Source: Sandaracinaceae bacterium
GTDB taxonomy: Bacteria; Myxococcota_A; Polyangia; Polyangiales; Sandaracinaceae
Direction: 5' to 3'
Assembly: GCA_044220955.1 (NCBI GenBank)
Contig: JBGAQA010000099.1
Location: 1-23,832 of the forward strand
Length of the DNA stretch: 23,832 nt
A model generated the notes under the pieces. The model worked only from the letters and a program-made list of their open reading frames with translations, did no database searches and had not been told where the DNA came from. The stretch's first letter is position 1. Each line of letters starts with the position of its first letter. Shown one piece after another: positions 2,408 to 20,784 of this stretch. The position numbers and the translations under genes were made by a program.

Positions 2408-3937
2408 TCATCGGCCGGACCGGGCCGGCGTTGCGTGCAGGGCCCTCGAGACTTCGAGCGCCGCGTGAGCGTCCAGACGCGCGAGGCGACCGAAGAGCGC
2501 CTGCGAGCCCGTTCCGGCTGCGGCGCCGTGGGCGCGGACCGACGCCCGGAGCGTCCGGGTCGCGAGCTCGGGATCCCAGGCGTCGAGGGCGTGTCGATCG
2601 AGCTCGCTCGCGAGGTCCGCGTGCAGCTCGAGCGCGAGCGGCAGCGCACCCGCGTCCTCGGCCATCTGCGCCATCGCGAGGGTCAGCTCGAAGCGTGTGC
2701 GTCCACTCTCCGCGCTCCGGCGCTGGCGTGCGCCCAGGGCGAGCGCGTCCGCGATCTTGCCGGCGCGCCCGAGTGCGCGGATCTCCGAGGCGGGATCGAC
2801 GCCGCTTTCGTCCGACGCGGCTGCGGCCGGCACCTCCCACGACGAGAAGAGGGCGCGGCTGGTCGCGGAGGCGAACCGAGTGCCGTCGGCGAACTCGCGC
2901 TCGAGCAGCTCGGGCAGGCGGCCGAGCAGGCCTCGCACCTCGTGGCGGTGAACGGCGGCGGCGGCGGCGCCGGACGGTCCCGCGCGATCGAGGGCCCGAG
3001 CGAGGTGCGCGTGCAGATCGAGCGCGAAGCGGCTCCGCTCGAGCGCGCCGAGCGCGTCGCGCACGACGATCTCCGGCGGTGCGCTCACCGACTGCTTCTC
3101 CAGAGCCTCGAGCACCAGCCGCGGCGGCGCGGGCAGCGCGGTGCGCGCCTCGCGCGTCGTCTCCGGGGCGCTCGTGATCGGCAGGTACAGGGCGGCCAGC
3201 GTCCAGCGCATCGCGTCCGGTTCCAGCGCGCATCGGGCCCGTGCGAGCGCGGCCGCGGGCACGAGCTGGCCTGCGATCCTGCGCACGAACGCGGGGACCT
3301 GCTCTGCGCGGTCGGGCGAGGGCTCCGTACGGCTCGCCCCTGCAGGGGACACGAGCGGGGGCGGAGGAGCGAAGACCGGTGGGGGCGGCGGCGCTGGCGC
3401 GGCCGTGACCGGAGCCGGCAACGCGGAGAGGGCGGCCCGCGCGCGCTCCTGCACCGTGGTCGTGCTCGGCGCGTCGTCGCCGAGCACGCGGCGCGCCGCG
3501 ACCTCGAGGGCGGCCCAGGCCGAGGCCAGCGCCTCCAGGCCCTCGCGGCTCGGCGCCCGAGCGGCCGCGAGCGCGATCTCGGCGCGCGCGGCGAACGTGG
3601 CGATGGCGTTGGCGCGGGCCCGGGGGCGAGGCGGTGTGAGCGCCGGCTCGTCGAGCAGTCGTGCGACGAGCCGAGCGCCGAGCGCGACGCCCACGAGCCC
3701 CTCACCCTCGGAGAGCGCGCACGCGAGGGCGGCGCCCACGACGAGGTCTCGCCCGACCTCCGCGAGGTAGCCCTCGCTGCTGCGTCGGACCCGGATCCAG
3801 TCGACCGCGCCACCGGTCGGCGACTCGAGCTTGGCCAGCTCGGTCCGGATCGCGTCGAAGCTGGGGTGGCCGCGGGGATCGGCCAGTGGTGCAGGGAGTG
3901 GCGCGGTCCATCGTTCGAGGCGCGCGTCGGTGCTCAT
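2408..3937 (-). CDS. tssA: T6SS protein TssA (ImpA N-terminal domain, Pro-rich linker, VasJ-like C-terminus)
   Basis: ATG at 3935-3937 overlaps the tssM stop (ATGA). N-terminal DPRGHPSFDAIRTELAKLES...VDW...RDL is ImpA_N-like; C-terminal LDAWDPEL...RLARLD is VasJ/long-TssA-like. The 624-aa ORF in the track is over-extended. Confidence 0.88.
   Translation of the reverse strand: MSTDARLERWTAPLPAPLADPRGHPSFDAIRTELAKLESPTGGAVDWIRVRRSSEGYLAEVGRDLVVGAALACALSEGEGLVGVALGARLVARLLDEPALTPPRPRARANAIATFAARAEIALAAARAPSREGLEALASAWAALEVAARRVLGDDAPSTTTVQERARAALSALPAPVTAAPAPPPPPVFAPPPPLVSPAGASRTEPSPDRAEQVPAFVRRIAGQLVPAAALARARCALEPDAMRWTLAALYLPITSAPETTREARTALPAPPRLVLEALEKQSVSAPPEIVVRDALGALERSRFALDLHAHLARALDRAGPSGAAAAAVHRHEVRGLLGRLPELLEREFADGTRFASATSRALFSSWEVPAAAASDESGVDPASEIRALGRAGKIADALALGARQRRSAESGRTRFELTLAMAQMAEDAGALPLALELHADLASELDRHALDAWDPELATRTLRASVRAHGAAAGTGSQALFGRLARLDAHAALEVSRALHATPARSGR
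2409..2435 (-). promoter_or_regulatory. Putative ECF-sigma-type promoter upstream of tssB
   Basis: Minus strand reads CGCAACG ccggcccggtccggc CGATG, inside the last codons of tssA. Same spacing as five other copies. Confidence 0.65.
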
Positions 3938-6900
3938 GGTGCGCACTCCGCGCCGCCGCGCGCGATGTGGCGCGGCGCCGCGACGCCCGGCGCGCGCAAG
4001 AGCCCGAGCGCGCGAGGGTGTGCCTCGCCGCCGAAGAGCGCGCACTCGGTCCGCACCGGGCGCAGGTCGACGACGACGTCGACGTCGTGTCCAGGCAAGT
4101 GCCAGCGCGCCGTGTGCGTGCGCTCCCCCGGCCTCGCGTCGAGCTGGGCGGCCGCTTCGACGAGCCGAAACAGGCCCCACTCGCCGTCTTGCGCGATGCG
4201 CTCCGAGAGACCCCGCGCGCTCTGCACCTCGACGCGCGCGCCCGTGCTCGGCGACTCGCCAGGCCACACGACGCGCGTCCACGTCTCGGGGCCGTTGTGG
4301 TAGTCGACCGTCGCACCCCCGACGAAGAAGCGCACCGACGCGGCCCCTGCGCTCGGGTGGATGCGGACGTCGAGCTCGATGCGGGGCTCGCTGGCGCCGG
4401 GCGGGAAGAGCCCGTCGGTGATGGCCTGCGAGCGCGCGAGGAACGTGGTCAGCTGTGCCGAGTACGGTGAGCCCGCACCGTGGTCGAGGCGCGCCGCGAG
4501 GGCGAAGCGACGCCCGGCCCGCGGCGCGATCGCGGCGAGCGCCGCGTCGTAGTGGGTCCAGAGCGTCCCGCCCGGGCGGTAGAACGCGCCCACCTCACCG
4601 AGCGCCGCGTCGTCACCGTGGGCCGCGAACGGATAGCGCCCCGCGAGCGACGCCGAGAACGGCGTGAACACCGCCGCGCAGAAGCTGCCCGACACTGCGC
4701 TCGCCATCGCCCGCGACGACGTCAGCGCGGCGGCCTCCACCGGTGGCCGCAGCACGTGCTCGAAGAAGTCGCGTGCGCCCGGCGTCTGCTCGGCCACGAG
4801 TCCGTCGACGCGGCGCCGCGAGGCGACGAGGCGGGTCTCGAGCGCGCCTGCTGCGCCCGCGTCGTCTCGGTAGGTCGCGAGCGCGTCGCGGAGCAGCGCG
4901 AGCTCGTCGGCGTATACGTCCGCGCCGAGCGGCGCGTCGTCGGGGGCGCCCTGCTCGCGCACGGCGAATCGCGTGTAGGGCTCGAGGGCGCGCGTGACGA
5001 GGGCCTCGCCGCGCGGCGCCGCCCGCTCGGCCGGCCTCGTGGCCTCCGGCCGGGCGCTCGCCAGGCGCGTCGTGAGCGAGGCGAGAAGCCCGGTGGCGCC
5101 GTCCGCGGCGTGGCCTTCGCCCGGCGCCTCGAGGCGCGCGTTGTCGTCCACCGCCGCGAGGAGACGTCCGATGGGCGGCGGCGTCCCGCGCGTCATGTCC
5201 TCGAGCAACGCGAGCGCCTCCGTCGCGTCGCGCGGCGGGCGCACCCGCACGCTGGAGAGGAACGTCCGCCACTCGTCGACGTACGCGGCGAGGTAGGCCT
5301 CGCGCAGCGCCTCCCGCGACGCCGGAGCCTCACGCTCGTCCGCCGCGCCGAGCAGCCATGCGCGATCCCGATCCGCCGCCGCGTCGATGCGCTCGCGAAC
5401 GACTTCTTCCCATCCTCGCCGCGTGAACGCGCCGCGGACGTGCTGCTCGCTGGTCAGCGCGTGTCCGGTGGCGCCGACCATCCTGGCGAGCGTGAGGTCG
5501 TAGCCGCGGCCCGCGCTCGCGTCGATCAACGCGTCGAGCGCGGCGCGATCGGCGCTCGTGCGTCCGAGCCCGAGACGTCCGAGGTGGATCGCGCGCTCGT
5601 GTCGCGGGACTCGCGGGCGGTCGGAGCGGTCGGTCATCCCGAGGAGCAACGCCGCGTGCGGCTCGCACGCCCTCGCGGGGCGACCGAGCGCGCCGCACCA
5701 CGCCTGCGCGAGACCGTGGGCCAGCCGTGCGCGACCTTCGGCGTCGAGCTCCGGCTCGGCGGCCTCGGCAGGCCGGCAGAAGCGCAGCTGCCGCTCGAGC
5801 AGCGCGTGCGCGCGTGCCCTCTCGCCGTCGACGGGCTCGCGATCGAGATCGGTCTCGAAGGCGGCGCCCCACGCCTCGAGCTCGCTCGCCTCGGCGGCGA
5901 GGAGCGGCGACAGGACGTGCTCCCGGAGGCTCTCGAGGTAGCGGACGCGGCCGCGGGCTCCGAGCCGCGGTCCCGGCGGAAGGCCGAGGCCCATGGACCA
6001 GGGCGAGCCCTCGTCGGCTCGCCGCCGGAGCGCCCCCAGGGCGTCGTGGAGCGGCACGAAGTCCTCCGGAGCCGCGATCGTGGTGGAGCGCGGCAGCGCA
6101 GCGACGCCGCCGCCCACGGTGTCGATCGCGCGCCTCTGGCCCTGCCAGGAGAACGCGCTGGCGATCGCCAAGACGCTCGCCAGCGTCGCGGACGAGGCGC
6201 CGGCCGACAGGTGCACGAGCGCGCGTCGTCGCCGGGCGCGGGTGCCGGGCGCCGCGGTCTCCGCGTCCGGCAGGATGACCCGGGAGAACAAGTGGTGGAC
6301 GAAGAACGCGCAGGGATCGAGCGCGCTCTCGGGTAGAGGCCGGGGCTCGATCCCGCTCGCGCGCAGGCAGCCCGCGAGCAGGCGATCGAGCGGGCGTCCC
6401 GACTGCGTGGCGCTCGTGAAGTAGACGCCGCGCAGCGTCGGCGTCTCCCCGTACACGCTGGCGACGAACATCTGCGCGAGGAGCGCGGTGAGGGGCTCGT
6501 GGGTCGACTCGAAGTGAGCGGGGAGCTCGGCCGCGAGAGCGCGTGCCTCGAGGCGCCGCTCGGCGGCGAGCGCGGCCGCGGTCCGGGACCGGAGCGCGCG
6601 AGCGAGCCCGGTGAGCTCGTCGCGCACGTGGTCCTCCAGCGAGCCGGCTCCGCTCGCGCCGCCGAGGGTGAAGCCCCAAGGACGCGCGCGACCACGCTTG
6701 TCCAGCGAGGCGAACGCCTCGGAGAAGCCCACGAGATGATCGCACTTGGTGATCACCACGTAGACCGGGATCGCGACGCCCAGCCGCCCCGAGGCGGCCT
6801 CGATGCGCGCGCGCCGGTGCCGGCCCAGCGACGCGCGCTCCGCCTCGGTCGCGGCCAAGAGGTCGTCGACCGGGATCGTGAGCAAGAGGCCGTCGAGCGC

Positions 6901-7506
6901 GCGCGCACCGCGGTGCTTGAGCAGGCGATCGAGCACCGCGAACCACTCGGCGTCCTGCTCGCCCACGGCCCAGCGTCCCGCGGTGTCGAGCAGGATGGCC
7001 TCGTTGGCCAGCCAGACGTCGCAGCGCCGCGTCTTGCCCACGGGCCGCGCGGGCGCCTCGCGCGGCTCTGCCTGGGGGCCGAGGCCCGGCGCGCTCGGAA
7101 ACGAGAGCCCCGAGCTGGCGAGCAGAGTCGACTTCCCGCTCTCCGGTGCTCCGAGGATCGCGTACCAGGGCAGCGCTCCCAGCGCGGCGCGCCCACCACC
7201 TCCCAGGCGCGTCCGAGCGAGCGCGGCGAGCGCTGCGTCGAGGTCCCGACAGACGTCTCGGACCTCGGCGCCCGTGTCGGATCGCGTGGCCTCCCGCGCC
7301 GCCTTCGGTGGCGCGACCGTGCGGACCGGCGCGGGTGTTCGTCCGCGCAGCACGACCCAGCGCCCGAGCGCGAGGGTGAGCGCCAGCACGACGACCAGAA
7401 CGTCGAGCGCCGCGGGCGCCCAGATCGGTGCACCCAGCGCGAGGAGCAGCCACGGGGCGCTCAAGAAGACGACCAGCGTGAGGACGAGTGCGACGGGGAT
7501 GACCAT
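3934..7506 (-). CDS. tssM: T6SS membrane complex subunit TssM (IcmF)
   Basis: 1190 aa. N-terminal hydrophobic helices, LPWYAILGAPESGKSTLL (Walker A), LLDTAGR, PVYVVITKCD, LRGVYFTSATQSG, GRYPFA, GEWGLFRL. Confidence 0.96.
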   Translation of the reverse strand: MVIPVALVLTLVVFLSAPWLLLALGAPIWAPAALDVLVVVLALTLALGRWVVLRGRTPAPVRTVAPPKAAREATRSDTGAEVRDVCRDLDAALAALARTRLGGGGRAALGALPWYAILGAPESGKSTLLASSGLSFPSAPGLGPQAEPREAPARPVGKTRRCDVWLANEAILLDTAGRWAVGEQDAEWFAVLDRLLKHRGARALDGLLLTIPVDDLLAATEAERASLGRHRRARIEAASGRLGVAIPVYVVITKCDHLVGFSEAFASLDKRGRARPWGFTLGGASGAGSLEDHVRDELTGLARALRSRTAAALAAERRLEARALAAELPAHFESTHEPLTALLAQMFVASVYGETPTLRGVYFTSATQSGRPLDRLLAGCLRASGIEPRPLPESALDPCAFFVHHLFSRVILPDAETAAPGTRARRRRALVHLSAGASSATLASVLAIASAFSWQGQRRAIDTVGGGVAALPRSTTIAAPEDFVPLHDALGALRRRADEGSPWSMGLGLPPGPRLGARGRVRYLESLREHVLSPLLAAEASELEAWGAAFETDLDREPVDGERARAHALLERQLRFCRPAEAAEPELDAEGRARLAHGLAQAWCGALGRPARACEPHAALLLGMTDRSDRPRVPRHERAIHLGRLGLGRTSADRAALDALIDASAGRGYDLTLARMVGATGHALTSEQHVRGAFTRRGWEEVVRERIDAAADRDRAWLLGAADEREAPASREALREAYLAAYVDEWRTFLSSVRVRPPRDATEALALLEDMTRGTPPPIGRLLAAVDDNARLEAPGEGHAADGATGLLASLTTRLASARPEATRPAERAAPRGEALVTRALEPYTRFAVREQGAPDDAPLGADVYADELALLRDALATYRDDAGAAGALETRLVASRRRVDGLVAEQTPGARDFFEHVLRPPVEAAALTSSRAMASAVSGSFCAAVFTPFSASLAGRYPFAAHGDDAALGEVGAFYRPGGTLWTHYDAALAAIAPRAGRRFALAARLDHGAGSPYSAQLTTFLARSQAITDGLFPPGASEPRIELDVRIHPSAGAASVRFFVGGATVDYHNGPETWTRVVWPGESPSTGARVEVQSARGLSERIAQDGEWGLFRLVEAAAQLDARPGERTHTARWHLPGHDVDVVVDLRPVRTECALFGGEAHPRALGLLRAPGVAAPRHIARGGAECAP

Positions 7507-7514
7507 GCGAGAGG

Positions 7515-7541
7515 TCTCGGCCGTCCGTCGCCCGCGTTGCG
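7515..7541 (-). promoter_or_regulatory. Putative ECF-sigma-type promoter upstream of tssM (possibly leaderless transcript)
   Basis: Minus strand reads CGCAACG cgggcgacggacggc CGAGA cctctcgc ATG, filling most of the 40-bp tssL-tssM gap. No SD sequence. Confidence 0.7.
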
Positions 7542-7546
7542 CGCCC

Positions 7547-8191
7547 TCAGCTGGAGAGCACGACGCCCGCGTGCACCCAGAGATCCAGCGCGAACAGCGC
7601 CCAGGTCACGGCCGCCAAGACGCACGCCGCCAGACCGGTGGCGAGCGCCCACCGCGGGTCGAGCGGAGCCTCCGCCTGGCTGCGCAAGGGAATGGCGTTC
7701 GGGCAGAGCAGACCCTCGGTCTCCGCGCCGGCGCGGACCAGATCGAGGTGGACGCTCTGAGCGAGCTCGAGGCGCGCCGCGTCCTCTGCGGCGTAGCGGC
7801 CGCGGAAGCCGAGGGCGAGCACCACGGCGTAGACGTAGAGCACGTGCCCGCGCGAGGGGTCGCGTCGGATGGCGTCGAGGCGCACGAAGAAGCCCTCGCC
7901 CGCCGCGTTCTCGCCGAAGAGCGCGAGCTGCAGGAGCCGCGGGAGCCACGCCTCGCGCGTTCGGGCGCGCGCCAGCATCACCTCGTCGGCGTACGCTGCG
8001 AGCGCGTAGACCACGTCGTCGACGTCCTTCGCGGCGATGCGCGCGCGCTCGGCCTCGGCGCGCAGCACCCGGAGCCGGTCTTCGAGGAGTGAGCGCGCGG
8101 CCTCCGGCCGCACGTCCGATCCGGCCGCGACGCGGGTCGCCGCCAGGGTCGGCTCGGCCAGCGCCAGCATGCGCTCGAAGGTGTCGCTCAT
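7547..8191 (-). CDS. tssL: T6SS membrane complex subunit TssL (DotU), no OmpA extension
   Basis: 214 aa. YALAAYADEVML...W...LQLALFGENAAGEGFF...LALGFRGRY and one C-terminal TM helix. Confidence 0.94.
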   Translation of the reverse strand: MSDTFERMLALAEPTLAATRVAAGSDVRPEAARSLLEDRLRVLRAEAERARIAAKDVDDVVYALAAYADEVMLARARTREAWLPRLLQLALFGENAAGEGFFVRLDAIRRDPSRGHVLYVYAVVLALGFRGRYAAEDAARLELAQSVHLDLVRAGAETEGLLCPNAIPLRSQAEAPLDPRWALATGLAACVLAAVTWALFALDLWVHAGVVLSS

Positions 8192-8206
8192 CGGATGTCC
8201 TCGTCG

Positions 8207-9598
8207 TCAGGCGTGGAGCGCTCGCTCGGCGCGATCGGTCTTGCGGTCCCAGCCCGCGCGCGCGATCGCGACGAGCGTCAGGCGGGTGTGCGAGGGGTCG
8301 AAGCTGCGCGCGGGCAGGTAGACGGCGATGCCCCGCTCGGCGAGAGCCGCCCGGAAGTGCCGGTCGTCCGCGGGCAGCTCGAAGCAGGTCTCGCCGGCGC
8401 GCATGGGGACTTCCGGCGGTGGTCGGTGGACCAGCTGCAGGGGGGCGCCCGGTGTGGCCGTCTCGAGCACGCGAGCGATGTCCGCGAAGGACGCGACCTT
8501 CGCGAGGCCGACGAGCGAGGACTCGACGTCGCGCGCCGGGAGCACCGAGCGCACCGAGAGATAGTAGCGCTCGCCGCGCGCCGCCTGCTCGTCGAGCCGG
8601 GCGAAGTGCAGACCGTCGCTGCGCGGCTCGAGCGGGATGGCACGCGCCTGCTCGCGATCGGTCGCCGCCAGCAGCGCGTCGATGCGGTCCATCGTCGCCG
8701 TCAGTGCGCGCTGTGGCTCTCGCGGCTCGAAGTCGGGGAGCTCGATCGAGGCGTCGACGGCGAGGACGGAGAGCGCGCCCGCGAGCGCGAGCAGCCGCTC
8801 GTGGAGCGCCTCCGGCGGGGCGTCGGCGCGGCGCAGGAGGTGGCGCAGCACGGGGTGGTGCGACGCGAGGGCGCTGGCGAGGAAGAAGCGTGTCACGTCG
8901 CCCGGGTCGACCTGCACGCTCTCCGCGTCGCGCTCGTGGCGCGTTGCGACGAGCGCCGCGAGGCGCGCGCCGAGTCGCTCCACGAGCCGGGAGAGCCGTG
9001 CGAGCAGGGGCCCGGAGGCGCCGATCGAGAGCAGCGGGCCGACGCAGGTCTCGTCGAGCGTCGTCGCCCCGTGCGCGTCCCGTCGGGCGACACCGAGAGG
9101 AAGCGTCTCCAGATCCTCGCGCGGCTCGTGACCCATGACGATGCGCAGCGTGGGGACGCCGAGCTCGAGCGTGACCGGCTCCGCCGGAGTCTCCGTGTGG
9201 GTGTCGACACCGCGCCGCTCGAGAACGCGCAGCCTCGGGACCGCGCCGCGTAAGTCGGAGCGAGTCCGACGATCGCGCACGAGCGCGATGTGGACCGACA
9301 CCTCCGCTCGCTCGGGACCGAGTCCGTCGATCGGACGGTCCGGCACGACGAGCTCGGACCCCTCGCCGAGACGAACGACGGTACCGTCGGCGAAGACGCC
9401 CTCGAAGCGCGCGACACGCACCACGCCGTCGCGAAGAGCCTGCGGGTCGAGGGCGAGCAGCCGGATTCCCCAGGCCCCGTCCCCGTGCGTGATCCGGAAG
9501 CGGCCGTCGAGCGCCTCGTGGTGGAGCCGGTCGGCCTCCTGGAGGTGCTGCGGGGCCAGCGGGAGCCCGTCCATCCAGAGCATGCGCGCGGTCGTCAT
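8207..9598 (-). CDS. tssK: T6SS baseplate subunit TssK
   Basis: ATG at 9596-9598 overlaps the tssJ stop. LWMDGLPLAPQHLQ, WGIRLLALD, GVFADGT, PGAPL...PPPEVP...CFEL, IAVYLP. Confidence 0.94.
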   Translation of the reverse strand: MTTARMLWMDGLPLAPQHLQEADRLHHEALDGRFRITHGDGAWGIRLLALDPQALRDGVVRVARFEGVFADGTVVRLGEGSELVVPDRPIDGLGPERAEVSVHIALVRDRRTRSDLRGAVPRLRVLERRGVDTHTETPAEPVTLELGVPTLRIVMGHEPREDLETLPLGVARRDAHGATTLDETCVGPLLSIGASGPLLARLSRLVERLGARLAALVATRHERDAESVQVDPGDVTRFFLASALASHHPVLRHLLRRADAPPEALHERLLALAGALSVLAVDASIELPDFEPREPQRALTATMDRIDALLAATDREQARAIPLEPRSDGLHFARLDEQAARGERYYLSVRSVLPARDVESSLVGLAKVASFADIARVLETATPGAPLQLVHRPPPEVPMRAGETCFELPADDRHFRAALAERGIAVYLPARSFDPSHTRLTLVAIARAGWDRKTDRAERALHA

Positions 9599-10077
9599 GG
9601 CGTCGGGTCTTCCGTCGTGCGCTCGATGCGGTACTCGTCCACCCGCAGCGCGAGCGTCGCCGCCGAACCGCATGGAAGGGCCGCCACCGGGACGAGCACG
9701 CGCCACGTGCGCCCCGCGGGCCGTCGGACGATCGCGACGGCGGCGAGGGAGCGTGTGTCCGCGCTCGGATGCACGTCGAGCGCAGCGCTCTCCCCCGGGT
9801 AGAGCGTGACGGACTCGGTGGCGACGATCGTGTCGGCGAGCGGCGCAGGGGGCGTCCAGGCCTCGTCGAAGGAGACGTTCTCGAAGGCCCCGGGGTCTCG
9901 GAGACCGACGATCCGCACCTCGGTCGGGAGCGGGGCGCCCGAGGTGTCCGGGTTGAGGAGCGCCCCGGAGGCGAGCGTCACGTGCACCTGGGCAGGGGCC
10001 TCGCAGACCGTGTCCGGCGGGAGCGCCTCGGCACAGGCCGAGAGGGCGAGCACCACGACCACGAAGGGCCGGCTCAC
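9595..10077 (-). CDS. tssJ: T6SS outer-membrane lipoprotein TssJ
   Basis: GTG at 10075-10077 overlaps the upstream stop (GTGA). Lipobox LALSAC, LNPDTSGAPLPTEVRIVGL, LYPGES, WR. Lies directly before tssK. Confidence 0.9.
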   Translation of the reverse strand: MSRPFVVVVLALSACAEALPPDTVCEAPAQVHVTLASGALLNPDTSGAPLPTEVRIVGLRDPGAFENVSFDEAWTPPAPLADTIVATESVTLYPGESAALDVHPSADTRSLAAVAIVRRPAGRTWRVLVPVAALPCGSAATLALRVDEYRIERTTEDPTP

Positions 10078-11319: not shown

Positions 11320-11346
11320 TATCGGCGCTCCTCGCCTCGCGTTGCG
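11320..11346 (-). promoter_or_regulatory. Putative ECF-sigma-type promoter upstream of the transglycosylase-like gene and tssJKL
   Basis: Minus strand reads CGCAACG cgaggcgaggagcgc CGATA in the 80-bp intergenic gap. Confidence 0.7.
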
Positions 11347-12163: not shown

Positions 12164-12750
12164 TAGTCGCTCCCACCGGCCTCGAGGGCGGAAGCATAAG
12201 CATGCGCGAAGGTGGCGTCGTATGCGGCGCGGTGCCGCGCCTGCCGAGCCTCCGGCGTCTCTCGCGTCCAGCGCGTCCAGAGGGCAGCCTCCCGGAACGG
12301 GCTCGGCCACCACCGGGGCACGTCGGCGCGTGCCTCTCTCGCCCGCATCTCGTCAGACGCCGCCACGGCCTGCGCCGCATGGCGCGCTGCGTCCGTCGCG
12401 GCGCGCGCGTGCGCGCGTAGGCCCTGCATGGCCCGGGCGAGCGCCGTACCGTCCACCTGCTCGACGTCGATGCGGAGCTCCTGCGCCAGGGCGCGCAGGC
12501 GTGGCTCGCGGGCGAGCTCCGGATGCTCGCGCAACAAGTGCGGGAGCACGCTCCGCCGCTCGCCGGGTGGGAGCGCGCGCAGACGATCCACGGCGGCCGC
12601 GGCGTAGGCCGCACGCAGGGGCTCGAGGGCCGCGAGCAGCGCGTTCAAGTGCTGGAGCGAGGTCGCCGCCGGGGCTCCGACGGTCGTCTTCCCGTCGAAC
12701 ACGTCCATCGCGTCCGTCGCCGGCTCGCCGAGCGCCGCGTGGCCGCTCAT
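12163..12750 (-). CDS. TagH/Fha C-terminal-like protein lacking an FHA domain
   Basis: ATG at 12748-12750 overlaps the tssH stop (ATGA); 195 aa. C-terminal LRAHARA...R.AA...REAALW...FAHAY resembles the helical C-terminus of T6SS Fha/TagH proteins. Confidence 0.6.
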   Translation of the reverse strand: MSGHAALGEPATDAMDVFDGKTTVGAPAATSLQHLNALLAALEPLRAAYAAAAVDRLRALPPGERRSVLPHLLREHPELAREPRLRALAQELRIDVEQVDGTALARAMQGLRAHARAATDAARHAAQAVAASDEMRAREARADVPRWWPSPFREAALWTRWTRETPEARQARHRAAYDATFAHAYASALEAGGSD

Positions 12751-15353
12751 CGGTGGCTCCAGGTGAAGCGCACGCTCCCGACGTCGTCGCTCTCTGCCTC
12801 GAGCCCCCGCGCGCCCGACGCCGCGCCAGGCGGGGCCAGGAGCTCGGACGCCAGGGGCGCGAGCACCAGCCGCTCGAGCTCGGTCCGGAGGCGGCGCACT
12901 CCCGCCGAGGGGTCCAGCGCCGTGCGGGCGAGGCTCGCCGACAGCCGCGGCCCGACGCGCAACGTGATGCGGTGGGCGAGAGCGACCCGCTCCGCGACCC
13001 GCCCGAGCTCCATCTCGACGATGGCCCCGATCGCCTCGCCCGAGAGCGGGACGTAGGGGACGACGGTCATCCTGCCGAGCAGCGCCGGCGCGAAGTGCGC
13101 GGCGAGGGACGGGCGGATCGCGCGCTCGATCTCGTCCCGGTCCGTGACGCCCGCGAGCGCCAGCTCTGCGATGCGCTCGGACGCGAGGTTCGAGGTGAGC
13201 AGCACGACGGTGCTCCGGAAGTCGATCACGCGACCTTCGCCGTCGGCGAGGACGCCGCGGTCGAGGAGCTGGTAGAAGACGTTCAACACCTCGAGGTCCG
13301 CCTTCTCGCACTCGTCGAGCAGGACCACGGAGTGCGGGCGCAGTCGCACCGCCTCGGTGAGCTTGCCGCCCTCGCCGTAGCCGACGTACCCGGGCGGCGA
13401 GCCGACCAGTCGCGAGACGGTGTGCTTCTCCTGGTACTCGGAGAGGTTGATCGTGGTGAGGAAGCGCTCGCCCCCGTAGAGCAAGTCCGCGATTGCGCGC
13501 GCCGTCTCGCTCTTGCCCACGCCGCTCGGGCCGACCAGGAGGAACACCCCGGCCGGCGCCTCGCGAGGGCGAAGGCCCGCGTGCGCCACGCGCAGTCCGT
13601 CGGCGATCGCGCGCGTCGCCTCGTGCTGGCCGATCACCCGGCGGTCGAGCGCGCTCTCGAGGTCGCGCAGGGCGTCGGTGCGCGCCCGCTGCAGGTCGCC
13701 GACCGGCACGCCGGTCCAGGACTCGATCGTCGCCGCGATCGCGCTCGCGTCGACCTCGGCGGCGATCAGCGGGCGCTCGCCGGCCGCCGCGTCGAAGGCC
13801 TCCTGGGCCACGCGGACCTCGATCTCGCGCTCCCGGCGCAGCGCCTCGGAGGACGGGCCGCTGGGCACGTCCCGGAGCGCGGCGCGCGCGCCGAGCAGCC
13901 TCTCGAGCGCGCCGCGCTGCGCGCTCCACCGAGCTTCGAGCTCGACCCGCTGGCCGATGACGGCCTGGACTCGTGACTCGAGCGTCGCGCGTCGCTCGCG
14001 GGTGGCCGGGCGCTCGAGACGCTCGCGCTCGAGCGCCGCACGCTCCCTCTCCAGGTCCTCGAGCTCCGCGTCGAGCTCGACGAGCGCCACGGGACGGGCG
14101 AGCTGCGCGGCGCGCACGCGCGCGAGGGTGGTGTCCAGCACGTCGACGCACGAGTCGGGGAGCTGGCGGCCGGCGACGTAGCGCTTGGAGAGCCGCACGG
14201 CCGCCTCGACGGCCTCGCTCCGGATGGGCACTCCGTGCGCGCGCTCGTAGATCGGGACGAGCCCGCGGAGCATCGCGATCGCGCGGCGCTCGTCCGGCTC
14301 CTCGACGCTCACCTTCTGGAACCGGCGTTCGAGCGCGGCGTCTCTCTCGAAGTACTTCTTGTGCTCGCGGAACGTCGTCGCGGCGATCGTTCGCAGCTCG
14401 CCGCGAGCGAGCGCGGGCTTGAGCAGGTTCGCCGCGTCGGTTCCGCCGTTCGGCTGCGCGCCGACCAGCGTGTGCGCCTCGTCGATGAACAGGATGATCG
14501 GCACGCTCGAGGCCTGGACCTCCCGGATCACGCCAGTGAGCCGCGCCTCGAGCTCTCCACGCGCCCCCGCGCCCGCCGAGAGCAGACCCATGTCGAGCCC
14601 ACGCAGGTCGACGTCGCGCAGCGGCTCGGGCACCTCGCCTCTGACGATCGCGAGGGCCAGCCCCTCGACGATGGCCGTCTTGCCCACGCCGGGCTCGCCG
14701 ACGAGGACCGGGTTGTTCTTGCGCCGCCGGCAGAGGATGTGGACGAGCTGCTGCGTCTCGCGCTCCCGGCCGAGCACGGCGTCGAGCTCCCCGGCGCGCG
14801 CCCGCCCGGTGAGGCTCGTCGTGAAGCGCGCGAGCGCACTCGCGCCGCCGGGCCCCGAGTCCTCGCTCGCGGGCACGCGGCGGGCCAGTTCGCCGCTCTC
14901 CGGCGATCGCGCGAGCGCCTCGGCGCGCGTGGCCCGGACGCGATCGAGCGGGATCCCGGCGATCGCGGGCGCCGACCCCGTTTCGTTCTGCGCGCGCTCG
15001 AGGAACGCGACGAGCAACGCGCCGGACCGGATCGCCGCCTCTTGCCACGCGAGCGAGCCCACCAGCCAGGCCTGCTCGAGCCAGCGCACGAGCGCGTCCG
15101 AGAGTGACGGTCGAGCGCCTCCACGGGGGGCGCGCCCGAGCACGTGCTCCAGCTCCGCGCGGACCGCTGCGCGCTCCTCCGCGGTGAGCAGCACTGCCGC
15201 GTCGCCCTGGTCGTCGGCGACGATCGCGTGGAGCACGTGCTCCGGTCCGAGCGTGTCGTGGCGCGCGAGCGCCGCAGCGGTCACGGCCCCCTCGAGGTGC
15301 CGCCTCGCGGTCGGGGTGAGTCGTCGGACGAGCGCTCGAGGTTCGGTTCGCAT
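12747..15353 (-). CDS. tssH: T6SS AAA+ ATPase TssH (ClpV)
   Basis: 868 aa with two AAA modules (RRRKNNPVLVGEPGVGKT, LFIDEAH, KPALARGELRTIAATT; GPSGVGKSE, SRLVGSPPGYVGYGEGGKLTEAVR) and a ClpV-type N-terminus, inside a T6SS cluster. Confidence 0.96.
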   Translation of the reverse strand: MRTEPRALVRRLTPTARRHLEGAVTAAALARHDTLGPEHVLHAIVADDQGDAAVLLTAEERAAVRAELEHVLGRAPRGGARPSLSDALVRWLEQAWLVGSLAWQEAAIRSGALLVAFLERAQNETGSAPAIAGIPLDRVRATRAEALARSPESGELARRVPASEDSGPGGASALARFTTSLTGRARAGELDAVLGRERETQQLVHILCRRRKNNPVLVGEPGVGKTAIVEGLALAIVRGEVPEPLRDVDLRGLDMGLLSAGAGARGELEARLTGVIREVQASSVPIILFIDEAHTLVGAQPNGGTDAANLLKPALARGELRTIAATTFREHKKYFERDAALERRFQKVSVEEPDERRAIAMLRGLVPIYERAHGVPIRSEAVEAAVRLSKRYVAGRQLPDSCVDVLDTTLARVRAAQLARPVALVELDAELEDLERERAALERERLERPATRERRATLESRVQAVIGQRVELEARWSAQRGALERLLGARAALRDVPSGPSSEALRREREIEVRVAQEAFDAAAGERPLIAAEVDASAIAATIESWTGVPVGDLQRARTDALRDLESALDRRVIGQHEATRAIADGLRVAHAGLRPREAPAGVFLLVGPSGVGKSETARAIADLLYGGERFLTTINLSEYQEKHTVSRLVGSPPGYVGYGEGGKLTEAVRLRPHSVVLLDECEKADLEVLNVFYQLLDRGVLADGEGRVIDFRSTVVLLTSNLASERIAELALAGVTDRDEIERAIRPSLAAHFAPALLGRMTVVPYVPLSGEAIGAIVEMELGRVAERVALAHRITLRVGPRLSASLARTALDPSAGVRRLRTELERLVLAPLASELLAPPGAASGARGLEAESDDVGSVRFTWSHR

Positions 15354-15419: not shown

Positions 15420-15446
15420 TCTCGGCCGGTCCGGGCCGTCGTTGCG
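15420..15446 (-). promoter_or_regulatory. Putative ECF-sigma-type promoter upstream of tssH
   Basis: Minus strand reads CGCAACG acggcccggaccggc CGAGA in the tssG-tssH gap. Confidence 0.7.
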
Positions 15447-15452: not shown

Positions 15453-16355
15453 TCACGCCAGGCGGCGAGCGCGCGGGCGCCCGACGCGGCCCACGCGGCT
15501 CGCGCCGAGCCGTGCGTCTCCGAGCCTCAGCGGAGCGTCGTTCGAGAGGACGAGCAGCTCGAGCTCGGTCGCGGGGTCGCCGAGCCAGGCGATGGACAGG
15601 ACCAGGGCGCGCCGCGCCGGGCCATCCGCTGCGAGCGCGGACACGAACGCGACGTCCACCGGACCGACCCGGATGGTCGCGCGGCTCGCGGGATCGTGGA
15701 CGCTCGTGCCGAGCACGGCCGCGTCGCCGAGCCGCGCGCTGCCCAGCCGCGCCCGCGAGCCCTCGTCGATCGACACCCGCCCACCGGTGTGCTCGACGAG
15801 CACGACGGGGGCCCCGCCGAGCCAGCGCCCGGCCACGAGGCGCAGGGCGCTGGCGAGAGAGGACGCGCTCGGGCGCCCCCGGAGCAAGGGCGCGAGCAGC
15901 AGCGCGGTCTCCCGCTCGGCTGCACGGGTCGCGTCGCAGCGCGCCAGGTGCGCGAGGCGCGCGGGCCAGACGTCGTCGAACGAGCGTGTCTGCTCCGGTA
16001 GCCTGCACCGCTGTACCGAGCGAAAGAGGAGGGCGGTCGCGCGGTGATGGAAGGGCGTCAGCAGCGCGCGCCGCGTCGGCCGATCGGGATCCTCTCGCGC
16101 GATCTCCTCCAGGAGATAGGGCGGGAGCACACCGTCGGCGCCGACCAGCGCGAGGAACTGCGTGGTCCACGCGGGAACCTCGCCGCGGGCCGGCGCGGGG
16201 CACGCGTCGTGAGCGGAGAAGTCGAGCGCGGAGAAGTCGAGCGCGGGGGGCGGAAGAAACCGGACGGGCTCGTCCTCTGCACGAGGAGCGCCGACACGCC
16301 GTCCGCTCGCGCGCTCGATCGCCGCGAGCGACGCGAAGAAGTCGCGACGGCTCAT
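15453..16355 (-). CDS. tssG: T6SS baseplate subunit TssG
   Basis: ATG at 16353-16355 overlaps the tssF stop. EPVRF...LDF, FLALVGADGVLPPY, FHHR, RLG...LG...V.D...IRVGPV. 300 aa. Confidence 0.9.
   Translation of the reverse strand: MSRRDFFASLAAIERASGRRVGAPRAEDEPVRFLPPPALDFSALDFSAHDACPAPARGEVPAWTTQFLALVGADGVLPPYLLEEIAREDPDRPTRRALLTPFHHRATALLFRSVQRCRLPEQTRSFDDVWPARLAHLARCDATRAAERETALLLAPLLRGRPSASSLASALRLVAGRWLGGAPVVLVEHTGGRVSIDEGSRARLGSARLGDAAVLGTSVHDPASRATIRVGPVDVAFVSALAADGPARRALVLSIAWLGDPATELELLVLSNDAPLRLGDARLGASRVGRVGRPRARRLA
16213..16246. repeat. 15-bp in-frame tandem duplication in tssG
   Basis: gcggagaagtcgagc x2 plus gcgg; encodes ALDFS-ALDFS. Confidence 0.9.
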
Positions 16356-18076
16356 GGGGCGCCGAGCGCGGAGCGAAGGGGAAACTCGAGCCGCGTCTTG
16401 GACGGCGAGAGGACGGCGCAGAGCTGCTGCCGGACGTTGAGCGGCAGCTCGCTCGCGAGCGCGTGGTCGAGCGCGCGCCCGAGCAGGAACGCCTCTCCGA
16501 GCGACGGAATCCGTGCCTCGTCGAGCTCGATCTCGACGGCGACGCCGCGCTCGATCACGCCGCGTCTCGCCGCTCGGAACGGCCGCTCGACCACGGCGCG
16601 CACGGCCTCGGCGAGTGACGAGCACGCGCGGGCACGGGCCGCGTCCGACGCGTGCGGTACCGCGCACGTCGCGAGCCAGGAGGTCAGCGCCGCGACGGAG
16701 AGGCGAGCGCGGTGCCCCGAGGCGCTCGCGCCGACGAGCGCGTAGAGCGCGTCCTGGCCCGTCCTGCCCGGCGCGCGTGGACCGAGCGGGGTGAGGTTGG
16801 TGAACGTCGCCACGGAGGGTGAGCGCGCGATGGGCTCGCAGACGTCGCCGGTGCGGAGCTTGGTCGCGAGCGTCCGGTTGGTGCACTCGAGCTCCACGGA
16901 GAGCGTCTCGAGACCGGTGGTGCCGCGGGCCCCGACGCGCAGGAACGTGTCGACCGAACCGTCGAGCGGCGAGCGGCGGCGCCGAAGCGCGAAGTACCCC
17001 TCCGACGCGCCCGCGCCCAGGTGCTCGAACCTCGCGAAGGAACGGTAGCCGCGTCGGCCGCGCCCGGCCTCGGCCAGACCTACCACGCTGCGCACTTCGA
17101 GAACCTCGATCGCCCCCGGGGGCAGCCCCGCGGCGCGCAGCGGGGCGTCACGCACGTCGTCGCGCCACGAGATGGGCTCGGCGTCGCAGCGGAACACGTT
17201 GACCGCAGGGACGCAGTGCAAGCGGATGGCGTCCTCGGCGAGCGCATCCGGCAAGGGCGTGTCCGGCGCGAATTCGAGCCGGATCTCGAGGCTCTCGGTG
17301 CGAGCGCGGGGGGGCACGCGCTCGAGCCCGACGAGGTCGAAGAAGAGGTGGCGCTCGGGGAAGAACCCCAGCTCGACGAGGTGCCGCGCGCCGGCGGGTG
17401 AGCTCTCGGGCCAGGGCAGGTGCGGCTCGCGGTCCGCATCGACGAGGGACGCGCTCCTGCCGAGCGGTGTCTCGGTCTCCCCGCTGCGGACCTGGACGCG
17501 CGCGAGACGGCGGTCGATCGCAGCGGCGAGCAGGCTCGCGGGCGCGAGCGGCGCATGGATGAAGAAGCGCAGCGGACGCGCCGCGTGCGCGCCTTCGATC
17601 GCGGCGCGAGGAGTCCGCAGCGAGATCGACAGCGCCGGCGCGCGCGCGAGGGAGCGATCGATGCGGGATCGGGCCACCGTGATCGGGGTCAGGTCCACGT
17701 CCCAGCTCGAGCGCAGCTCGCAGCGGACGCCGTCGACCGGCCGCGAGCCGAACGCAGCGCCCGCCGGGACGGTCACGCGCTCGCGCAACAGGGCCGCGCG
17801 CGGCGAGAGCTCCATGACGGTCGAGGCGGGCACGGGGCGCAGCGCATGGGGCGCGACGACCTCGGCGATCGCGTCGATCACCTCGGGGACCGCGTCGTCG
17901 GCGCGCTCGCGGGTCCGCGCGGCGACGAAGGCGAACCCCTCGAGCAGACGCTCGACGTCGGGGTCACACCCGGGCTGCGCGAGCGTGTCGCAGAGGCCTG
18001 GATGTCGGAGCGCCATCTCGCGACCCATCTCGCGCAGGAAGGCGATCTCCTCTCGGTAGGTCGCATCGAAGGTCAC
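16352..18076 (-). CDS. tssF: T6SS baseplate subunit TssF
   Basis: GTG at 18074-18076 with GAGGAG RBS. YREEIAFLREMGRE, DPDVERLLEGFAF, FFPERHLFFDL, RLHCVPAVNVF, LECTNR. 574 aa. Confidence 0.96.
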   Translation of the reverse strand: MTFDATYREEIAFLREMGREMALRHPGLCDTLAQPGCDPDVERLLEGFAFVAARTRERADDAVPEVIDAIAEVVAPHALRPVPASTVMELSPRAALLRERVTVPAGAAFGSRPVDGVRCELRSSWDVDLTPITVARSRIDRSLARAPALSISLRTPRAAIEGAHAARPLRFFIHAPLAPASLLAAAIDRRLARVQVRSGETETPLGRSASLVDADREPHLPWPESSPAGARHLVELGFFPERHLFFDLVGLERVPPRARTESLEIRLEFAPDTPLPDALAEDAIRLHCVPAVNVFRCDAEPISWRDDVRDAPLRAAGLPPGAIEVLEVRSVVGLAEAGRGRRGYRSFARFEHLGAGASEGYFALRRRRSPLDGSVDTFLRVGARGTTGLETLSVELECTNRTLATKLRTGDVCEPIARSPSVATFTNLTPLGPRAPGRTGQDALYALVGASASGHRARLSVAALTSWLATCAVPHASDAARARACSSLAEAVRAVVERPFRAARRGVIERGVAVEIELDEARIPSLGEAFLLGRALDHALASELPLNVRQQLCAVLSPSKTRLEFPLRSALGAP

Positions 18077-18090
18077 GCGGTACGCTCCTC

Positions 18091-18462
18091 TCAGCTGACG
18101 CTGCACCGGCCGCTGGCGTCGATCTCGGTCAGGAAACGGTAGGTGCGCCCGCGCTCGCCCCTGCCGCGCCCGCGCACCTGGAAGGCCAAGCAGAGAGGGT
18201 CGGGGCTCGCCACGGCGCGCACGATCACGCCGGTCAGCCGCGGCTCGTAGCGGTCCACGAGAGTCGCGAGCGCGCGCTCGAGCGAGCGCACACCCTCGGG
18301 CCAGGTATGCACGAGGTCGGTCAGATCCGGGCGGCCCAGGTCGGGCGCCGCCGCGGCGGCGCCGCGCCGCGCGTCGAAGAGCGCGCGGAGGTGCAGAGCG
18401 ATCGAGCGATGCTCGTCGAGCTCGCGCGCGCCTCGATCCAGTCGATCGAACAGACCTCGCAT
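18091..18462 (-). CDS. tssE: T6SS baseplate subunit TssE (gp25-like)
   Basis: 123 aa, LFDRL...SIALHLRALFDARRG...DLGRPDL...RYEPRL. Lies between hcp and tssF. Confidence 0.92.
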   Translation of the reverse strand: MRGLFDRLDRGARELDEHRSIALHLRALFDARRGAAAAAPDLGRPDLTDLVHTWPEGVRSLERALATLVDRYEPRLTGVIVRAVASPDPLCLAFQVRGRGRGERGRTYRFLTEIDASGRCSVS

Positions 18463-18489
18463 CGCGCACCTCCGCGGCGCCGTCCCCGC

Positions 18490-18984
18490 TCAGCTCCCCG
18501 TGCGCTCGCGCCAGCTGTCGGCGAACTCCTTGCTGCCCGGGATGTGCGTCCAGGTGATGCGGGAGAAGACGAGCGAGACGTCCTCTTTGACCGGGGCGTC
18601 CTCGGTGCCCTCGGAGACGCGGCGCTTGATGCGGCAGACGCGCGCGTCCTCGATCTTCACGGTGAACCAGTGCTCCCAGCCGCCGCCGTCGGCGATCGGC
18701 CGGAAGAACTTGAACTCGCCCGAGCACTGCTGCGAGCGCGTCAGCGCCTGCGCGAGCACGGGCGAGCTCTTGTCGACCCACTTCGTGATCGCGATGGGCT
18801 CGTACGTGCGGTCGGACTGCGCCCACGAGGAGCGACGATCGAACCCCACCGCCACGCCCTCCTCGTACGAGTGGCACTCGATGGCCTTGCTGACGTCGAT
18901 GTCGGCCATCGACTGGATGGACGACTCGGCCTCGACGTCGTTGCCGTCGGCCTTGAGAAACAGGAACACGGGGATCTGCGACAT
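18490..18984 (-). CDS. hcp: T6SS tube protein Hcp (TssD)
   Basis: 164 aa, PIAITKWVDKSSPVLAQAL, FKFFRP, EHWFTVKIEDARV, EDVSLVFSRITWTH. Strong GAGGAG RBS. Confidence 0.94.
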   Translation of the reverse strand: MSQIPVFLFLKADGNDVEAESSIQSMADIDVSKAIECHSYEEGVAVGFDRRSSWAQSDRTYEPIAITKWVDKSSPVLAQALTRSQQCSGEFKFFRPIADGGGWEHWFTVKIEDARVCRIKRRVSEGTEDAPVKEDVSLVFSRITWTHIPGSKEFADSWRERTGS

Positions 18985-19035: not shown

Positions 19036-19062
19036 TGTCGCCGCGGCGCGCGCGGCGTTGCG
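19036..19062 (-). promoter_or_regulatory. Putative ECF-sigma-type promoter upstream of hcp
   Basis: Minus strand reads CGCAACG ccgcgcgcgccgcgg CGACA in the kinase-hcp gap. Confidence 0.7.
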
Positions 19063-19086
19063 TGCGATCGGCGCGGTGCCGTGGCG

Positions 19087-20739
19087 TCAGAGCATGTCGA
19101 CGACGACACGCTCGGTGCTGCCAGGGTCCACGCTGACGTGGCGCTCGACCTGGGTGCTGCCGCTCGTCACCACGACGTCGTGTGGGCCGGCCTCGACCGT
19201 GATCGTCACGGGGGCGCGGCCGATGGGACGGCCGTCGAGCGTGACGTCGCCGAAGGGCACCGCGACGATCTGGATGCGGCCGAAGCTCGGTGCGGTGTCC
19301 TCGGTCTCGGGAGGTGGCCGGCGCCGGTGGTGCGAGGGCGCGGGTGAGGACGACGAGGGCGAGGGCGCGGGTGAGGACGACGAGGGCGAGGGCGCGGGTG
19401 AGGACGACGAGGGCGAGGGCGCGGGTGAGGACGACGAGGGCGAGGGCGCGGGCGCGGGCGCGGGCGCGGGCGAGGGCGGCTTCGGCGGCTCGCTCGTCGG
19501 GTGCGCCGCGATCGTCTCGTCTTCGGGCCCGCGGGCGTCGGCGATCGCGTGGGCGATGCGCTCGCCGCCGATCATCGTCACGAGGAGGCCGAGCACGAGC
19601 GCGCTCCCGCCGCCGGCCAGCGTGACGCCGAGCGCGAACGGGAGCGCGCGGCTCCGGGCGGGGCGCGGTGCGGCGCGGCTCCCGGAGTCGTCCGTCGCAT
19701 CGGTGCTCGTGACCCCGGCGCCGACCTCCGTCGGTCCCTCGTCCGTCGGGACGCTGCGCGCCACCGGCGTGTCGACCTGGACGCGCGCGCGCGCGCGCAG
19801 GCCCCGGACGCGGGTCGCGGGCGCGCCGGCGCGCGTCCGCCGCGCGTCGTCGACGAGCGCGGCCAGGGCCCGCCGCGGGTCCCGCCCACCGCCTGCGGTG
19901 GCCGAGAGCGCGTGCGCCACTTCGTCCGCCGAGCTCGCGCGATCCTCGGGGCGCGGGGCGAGCATCTTCCCCACGAGGGTCACGACCTCGCCCGGTACGT
20001 CCGGCGCGAGCTCACGGAGCGAAGGACGTCGGGCCCGCTGCGCGTTGGTGAGCGTGTCGAGATCGGTCTGCCCATCGTGCGGGCGCCGCCCCGCGAGCAG
20101 CTCGAACAGGACGACACCGAGCGCGAAGAGGTCGGTGCGGCGATCGATCGGCTCGCCGAGCGCCTGCTCGGGCGCCATGTACGGCACCTTTCCCTTCACG
20201 ATGCCGCTCCGCGTGCGGTGCGTCCGCAGGGTGGAGCGCGCGATGCCGAAGTCGGCGAGCTTCACCTCGCCGTGCACGGACAAGAGGACGTTCGACGGCG
20301 TCACGTCGCGGTGCACGAGCCCCGCGGGGCGCCCGTCGATCTCGAGCGCGTGCGCGTACGCGAGGGCCTCGGCGACCATGCGGACGACGTACATCGCCAC
20401 GTCCGCGGGCAGCGCCGCGCCGCGTGCGCGCAGGCTCGCCAGCAGCGAGCGGAGGTCGAGCCCGTCGACGAGCTCCATCGCCATGAACCACTTGCCGCCC
20501 ACCTGGCCGAGCTCGTGCACCGCGGCGATCCCCGGATGGTGCAGGTGCGCGCAGAGCCGCGCCTCGTCGTGGAACTGCGCGACGGCGTCGCGGTCCCGCT
20601 CGGCGTCGGCGAGCACGCGCTTCAGGCAGACGCGCTTGACGAAGCCCTCCGGCCCGGCGCGCCGCGCCACGTAGACCTCGGCCATCCCGCCGGCGCCGAG
20701 GCGCCCCTCGATCTCGTAGTCACCGAATCGCTCGCCCAT
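19087..20739 (-). CDS. Hanks-type Ser/Thr protein kinase with TM helix, Pro/Ser linker and C-terminal PEGA-like domain
   Basis: MGERFGDYEIEGRLGAGGMAEVY, VCLKR, HRDVTPSNVL, DFG, YMAPEQ, DLFALGVVLFELLAG. TM region ALPFALGVTLAGGGSALVLGLLVTMIGG. PEGA-like VTLDGRPIGRAPVTITVEAGPHDVVV. 550 aa. Confidence 0.93.
   Translation of the reverse strand: MGERFGDYEIEGRLGAGGMAEVYVARRAGPEGFVKRVCLKRVLADAERDRDAVAQFHDEARLCAHLHHPGIAAVHELGQVGGKWFMAMELVDGLDLRSLLASLRARGAALPADVAMYVVRMVAEALAYAHALEIDGRPAGLVHRDVTPSNVLLSVHGEVKLADFGIARSTLRTHRTRSGIVKGKVPYMAPEQALGEPIDRRTDLFALGVVLFELLAGRRPHDGQTDLDTLTNAQRARRPSLRELAPDVPGEVVTLVGKMLAPRPEDRASSADEVAHALSATAGGGRDPRRALAALVDDARRTRAGAPATRVRGLRARARVQVDTPVARSVPTDEGPTEVGAGVTSTDATDDSGSRAAPRPARSRALPFALGVTLAGGGSALVLGLLVTMIGGERIAHAIADARGPEDETIAAHPTSEPPKPPSPAPAPAPAPSPSSSSPAPSPSSSSPAPSPSSSSPAPSPSSSSPAPSHHRRRPPPETEDTAPSFGRIQIVAVPFGDVTLDGRPIGRAPVTITVEAGPHDVVVTSGSTQVERHVSVDPGSTERVVVDML
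19333..19452. repeat. 27-bp coding tandem repeat (4 exact copies plus partial) in the kinase linker
   Basis: cgagggcgcgggtgaggacgacgaggg at 19333, 19360, 19387 and 19414; encodes (PSSSSPAPS)4, adjoining a (PA)n run. Confidence 0.95.
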
Positions 20740-20757
20740 CGCGGCCCTCGGTGTCCG

Positions 20758-20784
20758 TATCGACACGGACAGGCGGGCGTTGCG
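20758..20784 (-). promoter_or_regulatory. Putative ECF-sigma-type promoter upstream of the kinase
   Basis: Minus strand reads CGCAACG cccgcctgtccgtgt CGATA, 18 nt before the kinase ATG. Confidence 0.68.

Follow-up and report, generated by a model that had tools for sequence, protein, structure and literature searches.

The 23,832-nucleotide (nt) contig JBGAQA010000099.1 of a Sandaracinaceae bacterium (GenBank assembly GCA_044220955.1), analysed over its full length and hereafter called the window, carries the genes of a type VI secretion system (T6SS) in which a bipartite motif, CGCAACG-N15-CGA, precedes successive blocks of genes. Comparisons within the source genome and with its relatives suggest that these sites belong to a Polyangia competence promoter, G[C/A]AAC-N16/17-CGAT[A/G], which would be read by a sigma28-like factor (C74-type), act in two tiers and have been wired onto the T6SS in two genera, that of the source genome (g1) and a second one (g3). 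As a whole, this account is probably right; its parts are graded separately below.

Six oriented sites in a T6SS cluster

All six copies of CGCAACG-N15-CGA lie on the minus strand, at the positions and with the fifth bases reported in an earlier reading of the same DNA (the preliminary description). The first, at 20758..20784 (CGATA), is 18 nt upstream of the ATG (20739) of a Ser/Thr kinase gene. The second, at 19036..19062 (CGACA), is 51 nt upstream of hcp and heads hcp-tssE-tssF-tssG, and the third, at 15420..15446 (CGAGA), begins 6 nt past tssG, 66 nt upstream of the tssH ATG (15353), and heads tssH and two open reading frames (ORFs) of unknown function. The remaining three are found at 11320..11346 (CGATA), 25 nt upstream of orf10074 and heading orf10074-tssJ-tssK-tssL; at 7515..7541 (CGAGA), heading tssM-tssA with the tssM ATG only 8 nt downstream, a leaderless-type arrangement; and at 2409..2435 (CGATG), 52 nt upstream of tssB and heading tssB-tssC. 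Shuffled sequences contained 0.28 sites on average and 2 at most, and none of 100 shuffles reached six.

The preliminary description had placed every site within or next to an intergenic gap. Four are indeed intergenic, but the tssB site overlaps the final nine codons and stop of tssA, the TGA in the site being the tssA stop, and that of the kinase falls within a reading frame that stays open from a DUF2845 gene (21378) into the kinase. In three relatives (G001, G002 and G005) that shared frame is closed and the kinase is a separate gene. Further CGCAACG heptamers at 8942-8948 and 11255-11261 are inside genes and have no CGA, as described earlier; an additional plus-strand copy at 12958 had been overlooked and likewise has none.

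Eight relatives were compared at the T6SS locus, five of genus g1 and three of genus g3. A site precedes tssB and orf10074 in 8/8, tssH in 7/8 (G001 being the genome where it was not found) and hcp in all six whose contig reaches that gene, and the tssM site is strict in 7/8 with a GAAAC variant in G017. The kinase site is strict in G001 and takes the form TCAACG-15-CGATA in G002 and G005. Across 36 strict orthologous sites, where box matches are given by construction, identity to the window was 0.49 in the spacers and 0.33 in the flanks. The motif thus recurs upstream of corresponding T6SS genes in both genera, with diverged spacers, bearing out the expected conservation in orthologous clusters, and in G007 a vgrG downstream of tssC has a site as well. 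For a different T6SS layout with divergent hcp and tssJ, found in other genera, a site was seen before tssJ at only 2 of 12 loci (G010 and G019, one genus), several of these loci being partial.

These conserved positions support the earlier idea of internal promoters heading T6SS sub-blocks. The accompanying idea that they split the cluster into modules did not hold up: terminator-like sites in the window are at chance level (4 versus 2.0 +/- 1.2) and none closes a minus-strand module, which makes overlapping, nested transcripts no less probable than separate ones.

Genome-wide distribution of the motif

In the source genome (G000; 7.5 Mb, 72.5% GC), CGCAACG-N15-CGAnA has 20 matches, of which 19 are intergenic and 15 lie at most 100 nt from a same-strand start, whereas nine other spacers between 11 and 20 gave 39 matches, 5 of them intergenic and 4 near a start. 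Genes were predicted with a purpose-made caller (6,545 genes, 92% coding), on which the start codons depend. Of 15 sites outside the window, 14 share their strand with the gene that follows. The loose form CGCAACG-Nx-CGA is commoner at spacers of 13, 16 and 19 than at 15, those matches being in-frame coding noise. The enrichment upstream of genes anticipated by the preliminary description is therefore present, and its prediction for orphan vgrG genes was also correct, a site preceding the only vgrG found in G000 (contig C280).

Intergenic bias, orientation and conservation together support a promoter for an alternative sigma factor, as first proposed, and we hold it almost certain that the motif is a promoter. 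Were it instead an operator for a transcription factor, strict orientation, a non-palindromic form and a 16/17-nt spacer would be unexpected. Moreover, the distance from the second box to the start codon of dprA or comF in relatives is 7-9 nt in 36 of 47 cases, as for a leaderless mRNA, which leaves no space for a ribosome site; the operator explanation is accordingly very hard to credit.

Seven motif copies occur on one strand within 6 kb in G001 (G001:C29:24041-30256), several with near-identical spacers, and probably reflect a repeated cassette.

A probable regulon centred on competence genes

Strict or near-strict sites in G000 precede dprA, comF, comEA, recQ, an operon ending in recD2, radA and ssb. 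They also precede the gene of an FHA-domain sigma54 activator, an Imm49 immunity gene, a transposase gene of the repetitive extragenic palindromic (REP) type and several lipoprotein or PEGA genes. Competence genes were identified with Pfam and NCBIfam, comF and comEA scoring below the curated cut-offs. Relatives across the order were examined with a relaxed pattern, [GC][CA]AAC-N16/17-CGAn[AG] within 130 nt of the start; kin are not independent, and all counts should be read accordingly. For dprA a site was present in 24/27 relatives (12/1410 control windows), a count that is partly circular because the pattern was chosen after dprA upstream regions had been seen. Free of this circularity are the counts for comF (23/26 relatives; 13/1268 control windows), for comEA (18/29 rows, most misses being weak second-paralog matches) and for the FHA-domain activator (23/25). 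A further family (f18) and genomes G098 and G123 also have the site; among 22 genomes of other classes, G114 (at dprA) and G094 (at comF) alone had clear sites, and G046 had a variant.

The preliminary description had pictured a T6SS-centred regulon, but the conserved core consists of competence genes, to which the T6SS was added in two genera. Order-wide sites at dprA, comF, comEA and the activator, together with those in the T6SS, point to a promoter of competence genes that was co-opted for the T6SS in two genera, and a regulon shared by competence and T6SS is very likely.

The same targets could instead mark a state of starvation, predation or DNA damage, with DNA taken up as food or repair template instead of for heritable transformation, and with the T6SS included merely through firing in that state too. 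Such a programme would suit recQ, recD2, radA and ssb, the many surface proteins, the lack of pilus genes and the UvrD, YscJ/FliF-like and FliK-like targets of G114, and a global attack-phase programme is run by FliA in Bdellovibrio according to the available text of PMC3627812. The conserved core is nevertheless exactly dprA, comF and comEA, and no site precedes the SOS-type genes checked (uvrB, recN, ruvB, mutS and a second recA). DprA and ComM, furthermore, act in the recombination of incoming DNA. We therefore judge a stress or predation state unlikely as the basis of the regulon and retain the competence promoter.

Several observations weigh against that reading, in addition to the circularity, kinship and caller-dependent starts already mentioned. 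No first-tier site (that is, a site of the motif described so far) was found before pilin, pilB, pilC, pilM or gsp loci in G000; recA, radC and comM have none (comM 1/23), and that of comEC is weak and unconserved. About half of the strict G000 targets encode lipoproteins, PEGA or unknown proteins, and ssb, with a site in only 5/26 relatives (control 10/667), was rejected as a core target.

Genes resembling a type III secretion system (T3SS) in G000 have no site. In G114, promoter targets (L481-L500) include dprA and genes for UvrD, YscJ/FliF-like, FliK-like, several four-helix-bundle (23S rRNA IVP) and PD-(D/E)XK nuclease proteins, so possibly another, T3SS-like killing machine is on the same switch there. 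In G002:C173 (L137, L114), comF is broken into two parts separated by about 1.5 kb, which suggests an insertion.

Comparison with sigma28 and ECF promoters

The logo of 52 sites reads cG(C/A)AAC-N16/17-CGAT(A/G)a. CGA is fixed by the search pattern; T follows it in 45/52 sites, the next position is A or G in 52/52, and A occupies the sixth position in 27/52. The spacer after AAC is 16 nt in 43 sites and 17 nt in 9, and the -35 element is GCAA in 44/52 and GAAA in 8/52. Promoters of extracytoplasmic function (ECF) sigma factors typically have an AAC-containing -35 and a CG-starting -10 about 16 nt apart, a description that the motif also fits. For sigma28, the available part of PMC12871210 gives the consensus T(A/C)AA-N16-GCCGATAA, in which the central CGA is invariant, and that of PMC3627812 gives TTAAG-N16-CCGATA for the Bdellovibrio FliA promoter. 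With sigma28 the motif shares the -10 GCCGATAA including its CGA, the leading GC being weak (25/52 each), and 17-18 nt between the -35 xxAA and CGA. The sigma28 -35 T(A/C)AA is not seen, and TAAA-N17-CGATA has 0 matches in G000.

The candidate sigma factor

No sigma factor is encoded in the window, in agreement with the preliminary description. We inventoried sigma genes in eight small motif-bearing genomes, covering all profile matches in seven and 13/14 in G042. Common to all eight are RpoD, an RpoD-like and an RpoH-like factor and the sigma28-like C74-type factor (G000:C74:4380-5051). All PDB matches of the latter are FliA/WhiG, and region 2.4 reads RxRGAxxDxxR in 116/120 homologs. The -35 helix is [KR]SWx[SC]R in 115/120, at a place where FliA has ESRVSQ; canonical FliA forms a separate clade (support 99/99), and no flagellin was found in 5/5 genomes tested (G000, G007, G027, G031 and G042). 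By the sigma70 rule this helix position reads base -31, and K/R there would therefore fit the C of GCAAC. Two lineages, G113 (P) and G046 (V), lack the helix K/R and have dprA/comF sites with GCAAT or GCAAG, the C being lost; covariation of K/R with C, seen in these two lineages only, is suggestive. In G114, 51 sites were found versus 12 in the control, and two of the same type lie before its own C74-type gene.

On this evidence, the C74-type factor is likely to read the promoter, an assignment made by elimination and fit. Counting against it, together with that indirect route and the divergent -35 and weak leading GC described above, are its score with TIGR02479 (119.3 bits, below the cut-off of 189.6, although this is still its best family match) and the presence of the motif upstream of only 1/16 C74-type genes. 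The same holds for three genomes outside Polyangia (G043, G044 and G052) that have a C74-type sigma and no dprA/comF site, and for G094, which has a clear comF site and in which only FliA-type sigmas were seen. The ortholog look-up, in addition, excluded G001-G007, G017 and G023, among them the g1/g3 genomes.

An ECF factor, as favoured by the preliminary description, might read the same competence and T6SS regulon, possibly activated by the kinase of the cluster as EcfK is by PknS. The ECF-like box types and spacing, the roughly 25 ECFs of G000, the position of the kinase at the head of the cluster with a motif of its own and the EcfK/PknS precedent (available text of PMC8999054) speak for this. 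None of the ECFs was common to all motif-bearing genomes inventoried, profile searches possibly missing divergent members, and no ECF had the motif conserved upstream of its own gene, so that the autoregulated ECF gene foreseen earlier did not appear. In 7/7 relatives the commonest, C231, is preceded by TGAAT-N16/17-CGTC, and it was not found in G042; C270, the next commonest, is preceded by GGAAT-N18-GTT in 5/7 and was found in neither G027 nor G013. A SigH-like factor near tuf (C62) was found in only 2/5 genomes, and C102, C259 and C253 were rejected on distribution or on motifs of their own. With the two most widespread ECFs thus patchy and tied to other motifs, and with a -10 and spacing that match sigma28, an ECF reader is improbable, if somewhat less so than the stress programme considered above. 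The C231 element, present in G000 (L191:2362-2997) as well as in the relatives, is likely an autoregulatory promoter.

A reader among the other shared sigmas would be the RpoH-like factor (C110), the RpoD-like factor or canonical FliA (C265). RpoH-like and RpoD-like genes are as widely shared as C74, the former abuts comEC, and a FliA -10 is a natural fit. Consensus boxes of RpoH and RpoD, however, do not resemble CGATAA; FliA-type factors were not found in motif-bearing G013, G031, G032 and G108, and the absence of TAAA-N17-CGATA from G000 also argues against them. This explanation is the least probable of the three just weighed, and the C74-type factor remains the preferred reader.

Three arrangements of sigma genes were also seen. 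The RpoH-like gene (L205:4089-5171) is convergent with comEC, 3 nt from its end. The canonical FliA gene (L189:3179-4176) is followed, in a genome without flagellin, by a 60-aa gene that we take to be FlgM-like. In G046, a sigma28-like gene and a C231-type ECF gene are divergent neighbours (L322; G046:C26:446637-448264).

A possible second, sigma54-type tier

Upstream regions of comM(-recA) contain a sigma54-type GG-N9-TG box in 23/23 relatives read, often in a form like the consensus TGGCACG-N4-TTGC, and CGCCA/TGGCG repeats lie 45-90 nt upstream in all 23. In G000 the same element precedes comM-recA, comEC, radC and the operon of the second comEA (L352, G000:C284, upstream of 2774; L205, C110, upstream of 17832; L420; L410), as well as two Uma2 genes and genes for a REP-associated tyrosine transposase (RAYT), an Rpn and an IS91-type transposase; a sigma54-like box is also found before comEC in G003 and G007. 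Since a conserved sigma54 activator, present in single copy, belongs to the first tier, we infer a cascade in which the FHA-domain activator would drive the second tier, and give this link an even chance.

Promoters of either tier before RAYT, IS91-type and Rpn transposases and Uma2 nucleases (L038:5183-5869, L412:680-1519, L418:830-1810, L419:1289-2668, L349:1926-2645 and L411:908-1828) look as if timed to incoming single-stranded DNA.

Proposed programme

In the mechanism that we propose, FliA/WhiG residues in region 2 of the C74-type sigma would fit CGATAA, and its [K/R]SWxSR helix would fit GCAAC in place of TAAAG. Direct targets of the factor would be dprA, comF and comEA, their messages mostly leaderless, and the gene of the FHA-domain sigma54 activator. 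The activator would in turn switch on comEC, comM-recA, radC and the second comEA at sigma54 promoters whose enhancers are CGCCA/TGGCG repeats. In g1 and g3, where the promoter stands before each T6SS sub-block and vgrG, killing and DNA capture would be switched on together. Induction would yield nested transcripts from the six T6SS points and vgrG alongside DNA receptor, ComF, DprA and helicases, followed through the activator by the ComEC channel, ComM, RecA and RadC, and DNA would be set free from T6SS-lysed prey beside a presumably competent cell. With no first-tier site at the pilus genes, the pili needed for DNA capture would have to be made under other control.

More tentatively, and with somewhat less than even confidence, we suggest that this is an undescribed Polyangia cascade, consisting of a sigma28-derived master with a rewired -35 helix and then the FHA-sigma54 activator. 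Lineages may plug killing machines into its top tier independently (the T6SS in two Sandaracinaceae genera and possibly a T3SS-like machine in G114), and small transposases and nucleases acting on single-stranded DNA may borrow its promoters. Such a coupling of killing to DNA uptake would have evolved separately from that of Vibrio, and its master sigma would be the switch by which these myxobacteria could be made transformable.

Relation to known systems

In Vibrio cholerae, DNA-uptake genes and a T6SS are placed under one TfoX/QstR programme in which killing frees DNA (available portions of PMC6237807 and PMC10239892). The arrangement predicted here likewise joins uptake genes and T6SS in one regulatory programme, but it occurs in another phylum and would couple them through a sigma promoter repeated six times in the cluster and placed before vgrG, rather than through TfoX/QstR activators. 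SigH of Lactobacillus sakei is reportedly a competence sigma, and the streptococcal competence sigma also drives a killing function, fratricide. ComX/SigX of streptococci are described as alternative competence sigmas in the accessible text of PMC12378983. The present proposal resembles them in an alternative sigma predicted to transcribe the late competence genes dprA, comF and comEA directly, and differs in the sigma28 family of the candidate, the Gram-negative host, a T6SS as killing arm and the position of comEC and comM on a second, sigma54 tier.

Likeness to FliA/WhiG, including that of Bdellovibrio as far as the available sources describe it, extends to the -10 CGATAA with its invariant CGA, 17-18 nt from AA to CGA, RxRGAxxDxxR and a non-flagellar programme in a predator lineage. 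Unlike FliA/WhiG, the C74-type system has a -35 of GCAAC/GAAAC instead of TAAA/TTAAG, the [KR]SWxSR helix, a score below the family cut-off, no flagellin and competence and T6SS targets. In Xanthomonas citri, EcfK (ECF43) and PknS control the T6SS (PMC8999054, available part). Here too an alternative sigma is predicted to drive a T6SS with a Ser/Thr kinase at the cluster, but no sigma lies in the window, no ECF fits the distribution and the regulon has competence genes at its core.

In the literature covered, subscription papers and supplements being outside that coverage, no account was found of this promoter, its sigma or the coupling for Myxococcota, nor of DNA-uptake regulation in myxobacteria; a recent M. 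xanthus review does not mention competence, natural transformation or FliA. If correct, our account would add a second Gram-negative coupling of T6SS and competence, in another phylum and built from different parts, and an example of a sigma28-family factor recruited as a competence sigma, its -35 code being changed. The promoter, the candidate master sigma, the second-tier activator and the lists of targets are all open to direct testing, and inducing the C74-type sigma could make genetically stubborn Polyangiales transformable.

Genes and repeats of the cluster

The gene order is kinase, hcp, tssE, F, G, H, two unknown ORFs, orf10074, tssJ, K, L, M, A, B and C, all features being on the minus strand. 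By Pfam, this is a complete T6SS core (tssABCEFGHJKLM and hcp) with vgrG elsewhere in the genome, and the earlier labels for these genes and the kinase were confirmed. The Ser/Thr kinase (19087..20739; PF00069) has a C-terminal PEGA domain (PF08308). It is followed by hcp (18490-18984), tssE (18091-18462), tssF (16352-18076) and tssG (15453-16355), together spanning 15453..18984, and by tssH/clpV (12747-15353) with the two conserved unknown ORFs (12163-12750 and 11375-12163; block 11375..15353). Further along are tssJ (9595-10077), tssK (8207-9598) and tssL (7547-8191) in 7547..10077, tssM (3934-7506) and tssA (2408-3937) in 2408..7506, and tssB (1859-2356) and tssC (331-1812) in 331..2356.

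The conserved 406-aa product of orf10074 (10074..11294) had been called transglycosylase-like. It has no Pfam, NCBIfam, PDB-sequence or Foldseek match and only weak Atlas matches, so the label finds no family support; its predicted fold does give matches to the lysozyme superfamily, all weak (chitosanase Z 6.2, Slt/MltC/MltE Z 5.1-5.5). With an invariant E71 and SYGxAQL, the protein is a possible peptidoglycan hydrolase for TssJLM assembly.

Lastly, a dispersed repeat resembling REP sequences or bacterial interspersed mosaic elements (BIME), with a period of ~90 bp and no assigned strand, occupies 20786..20927 between the DUF2845 gene and the kinase, where it abuts the kinase promoter; it recurs at about 75 loci on 54 contigs.

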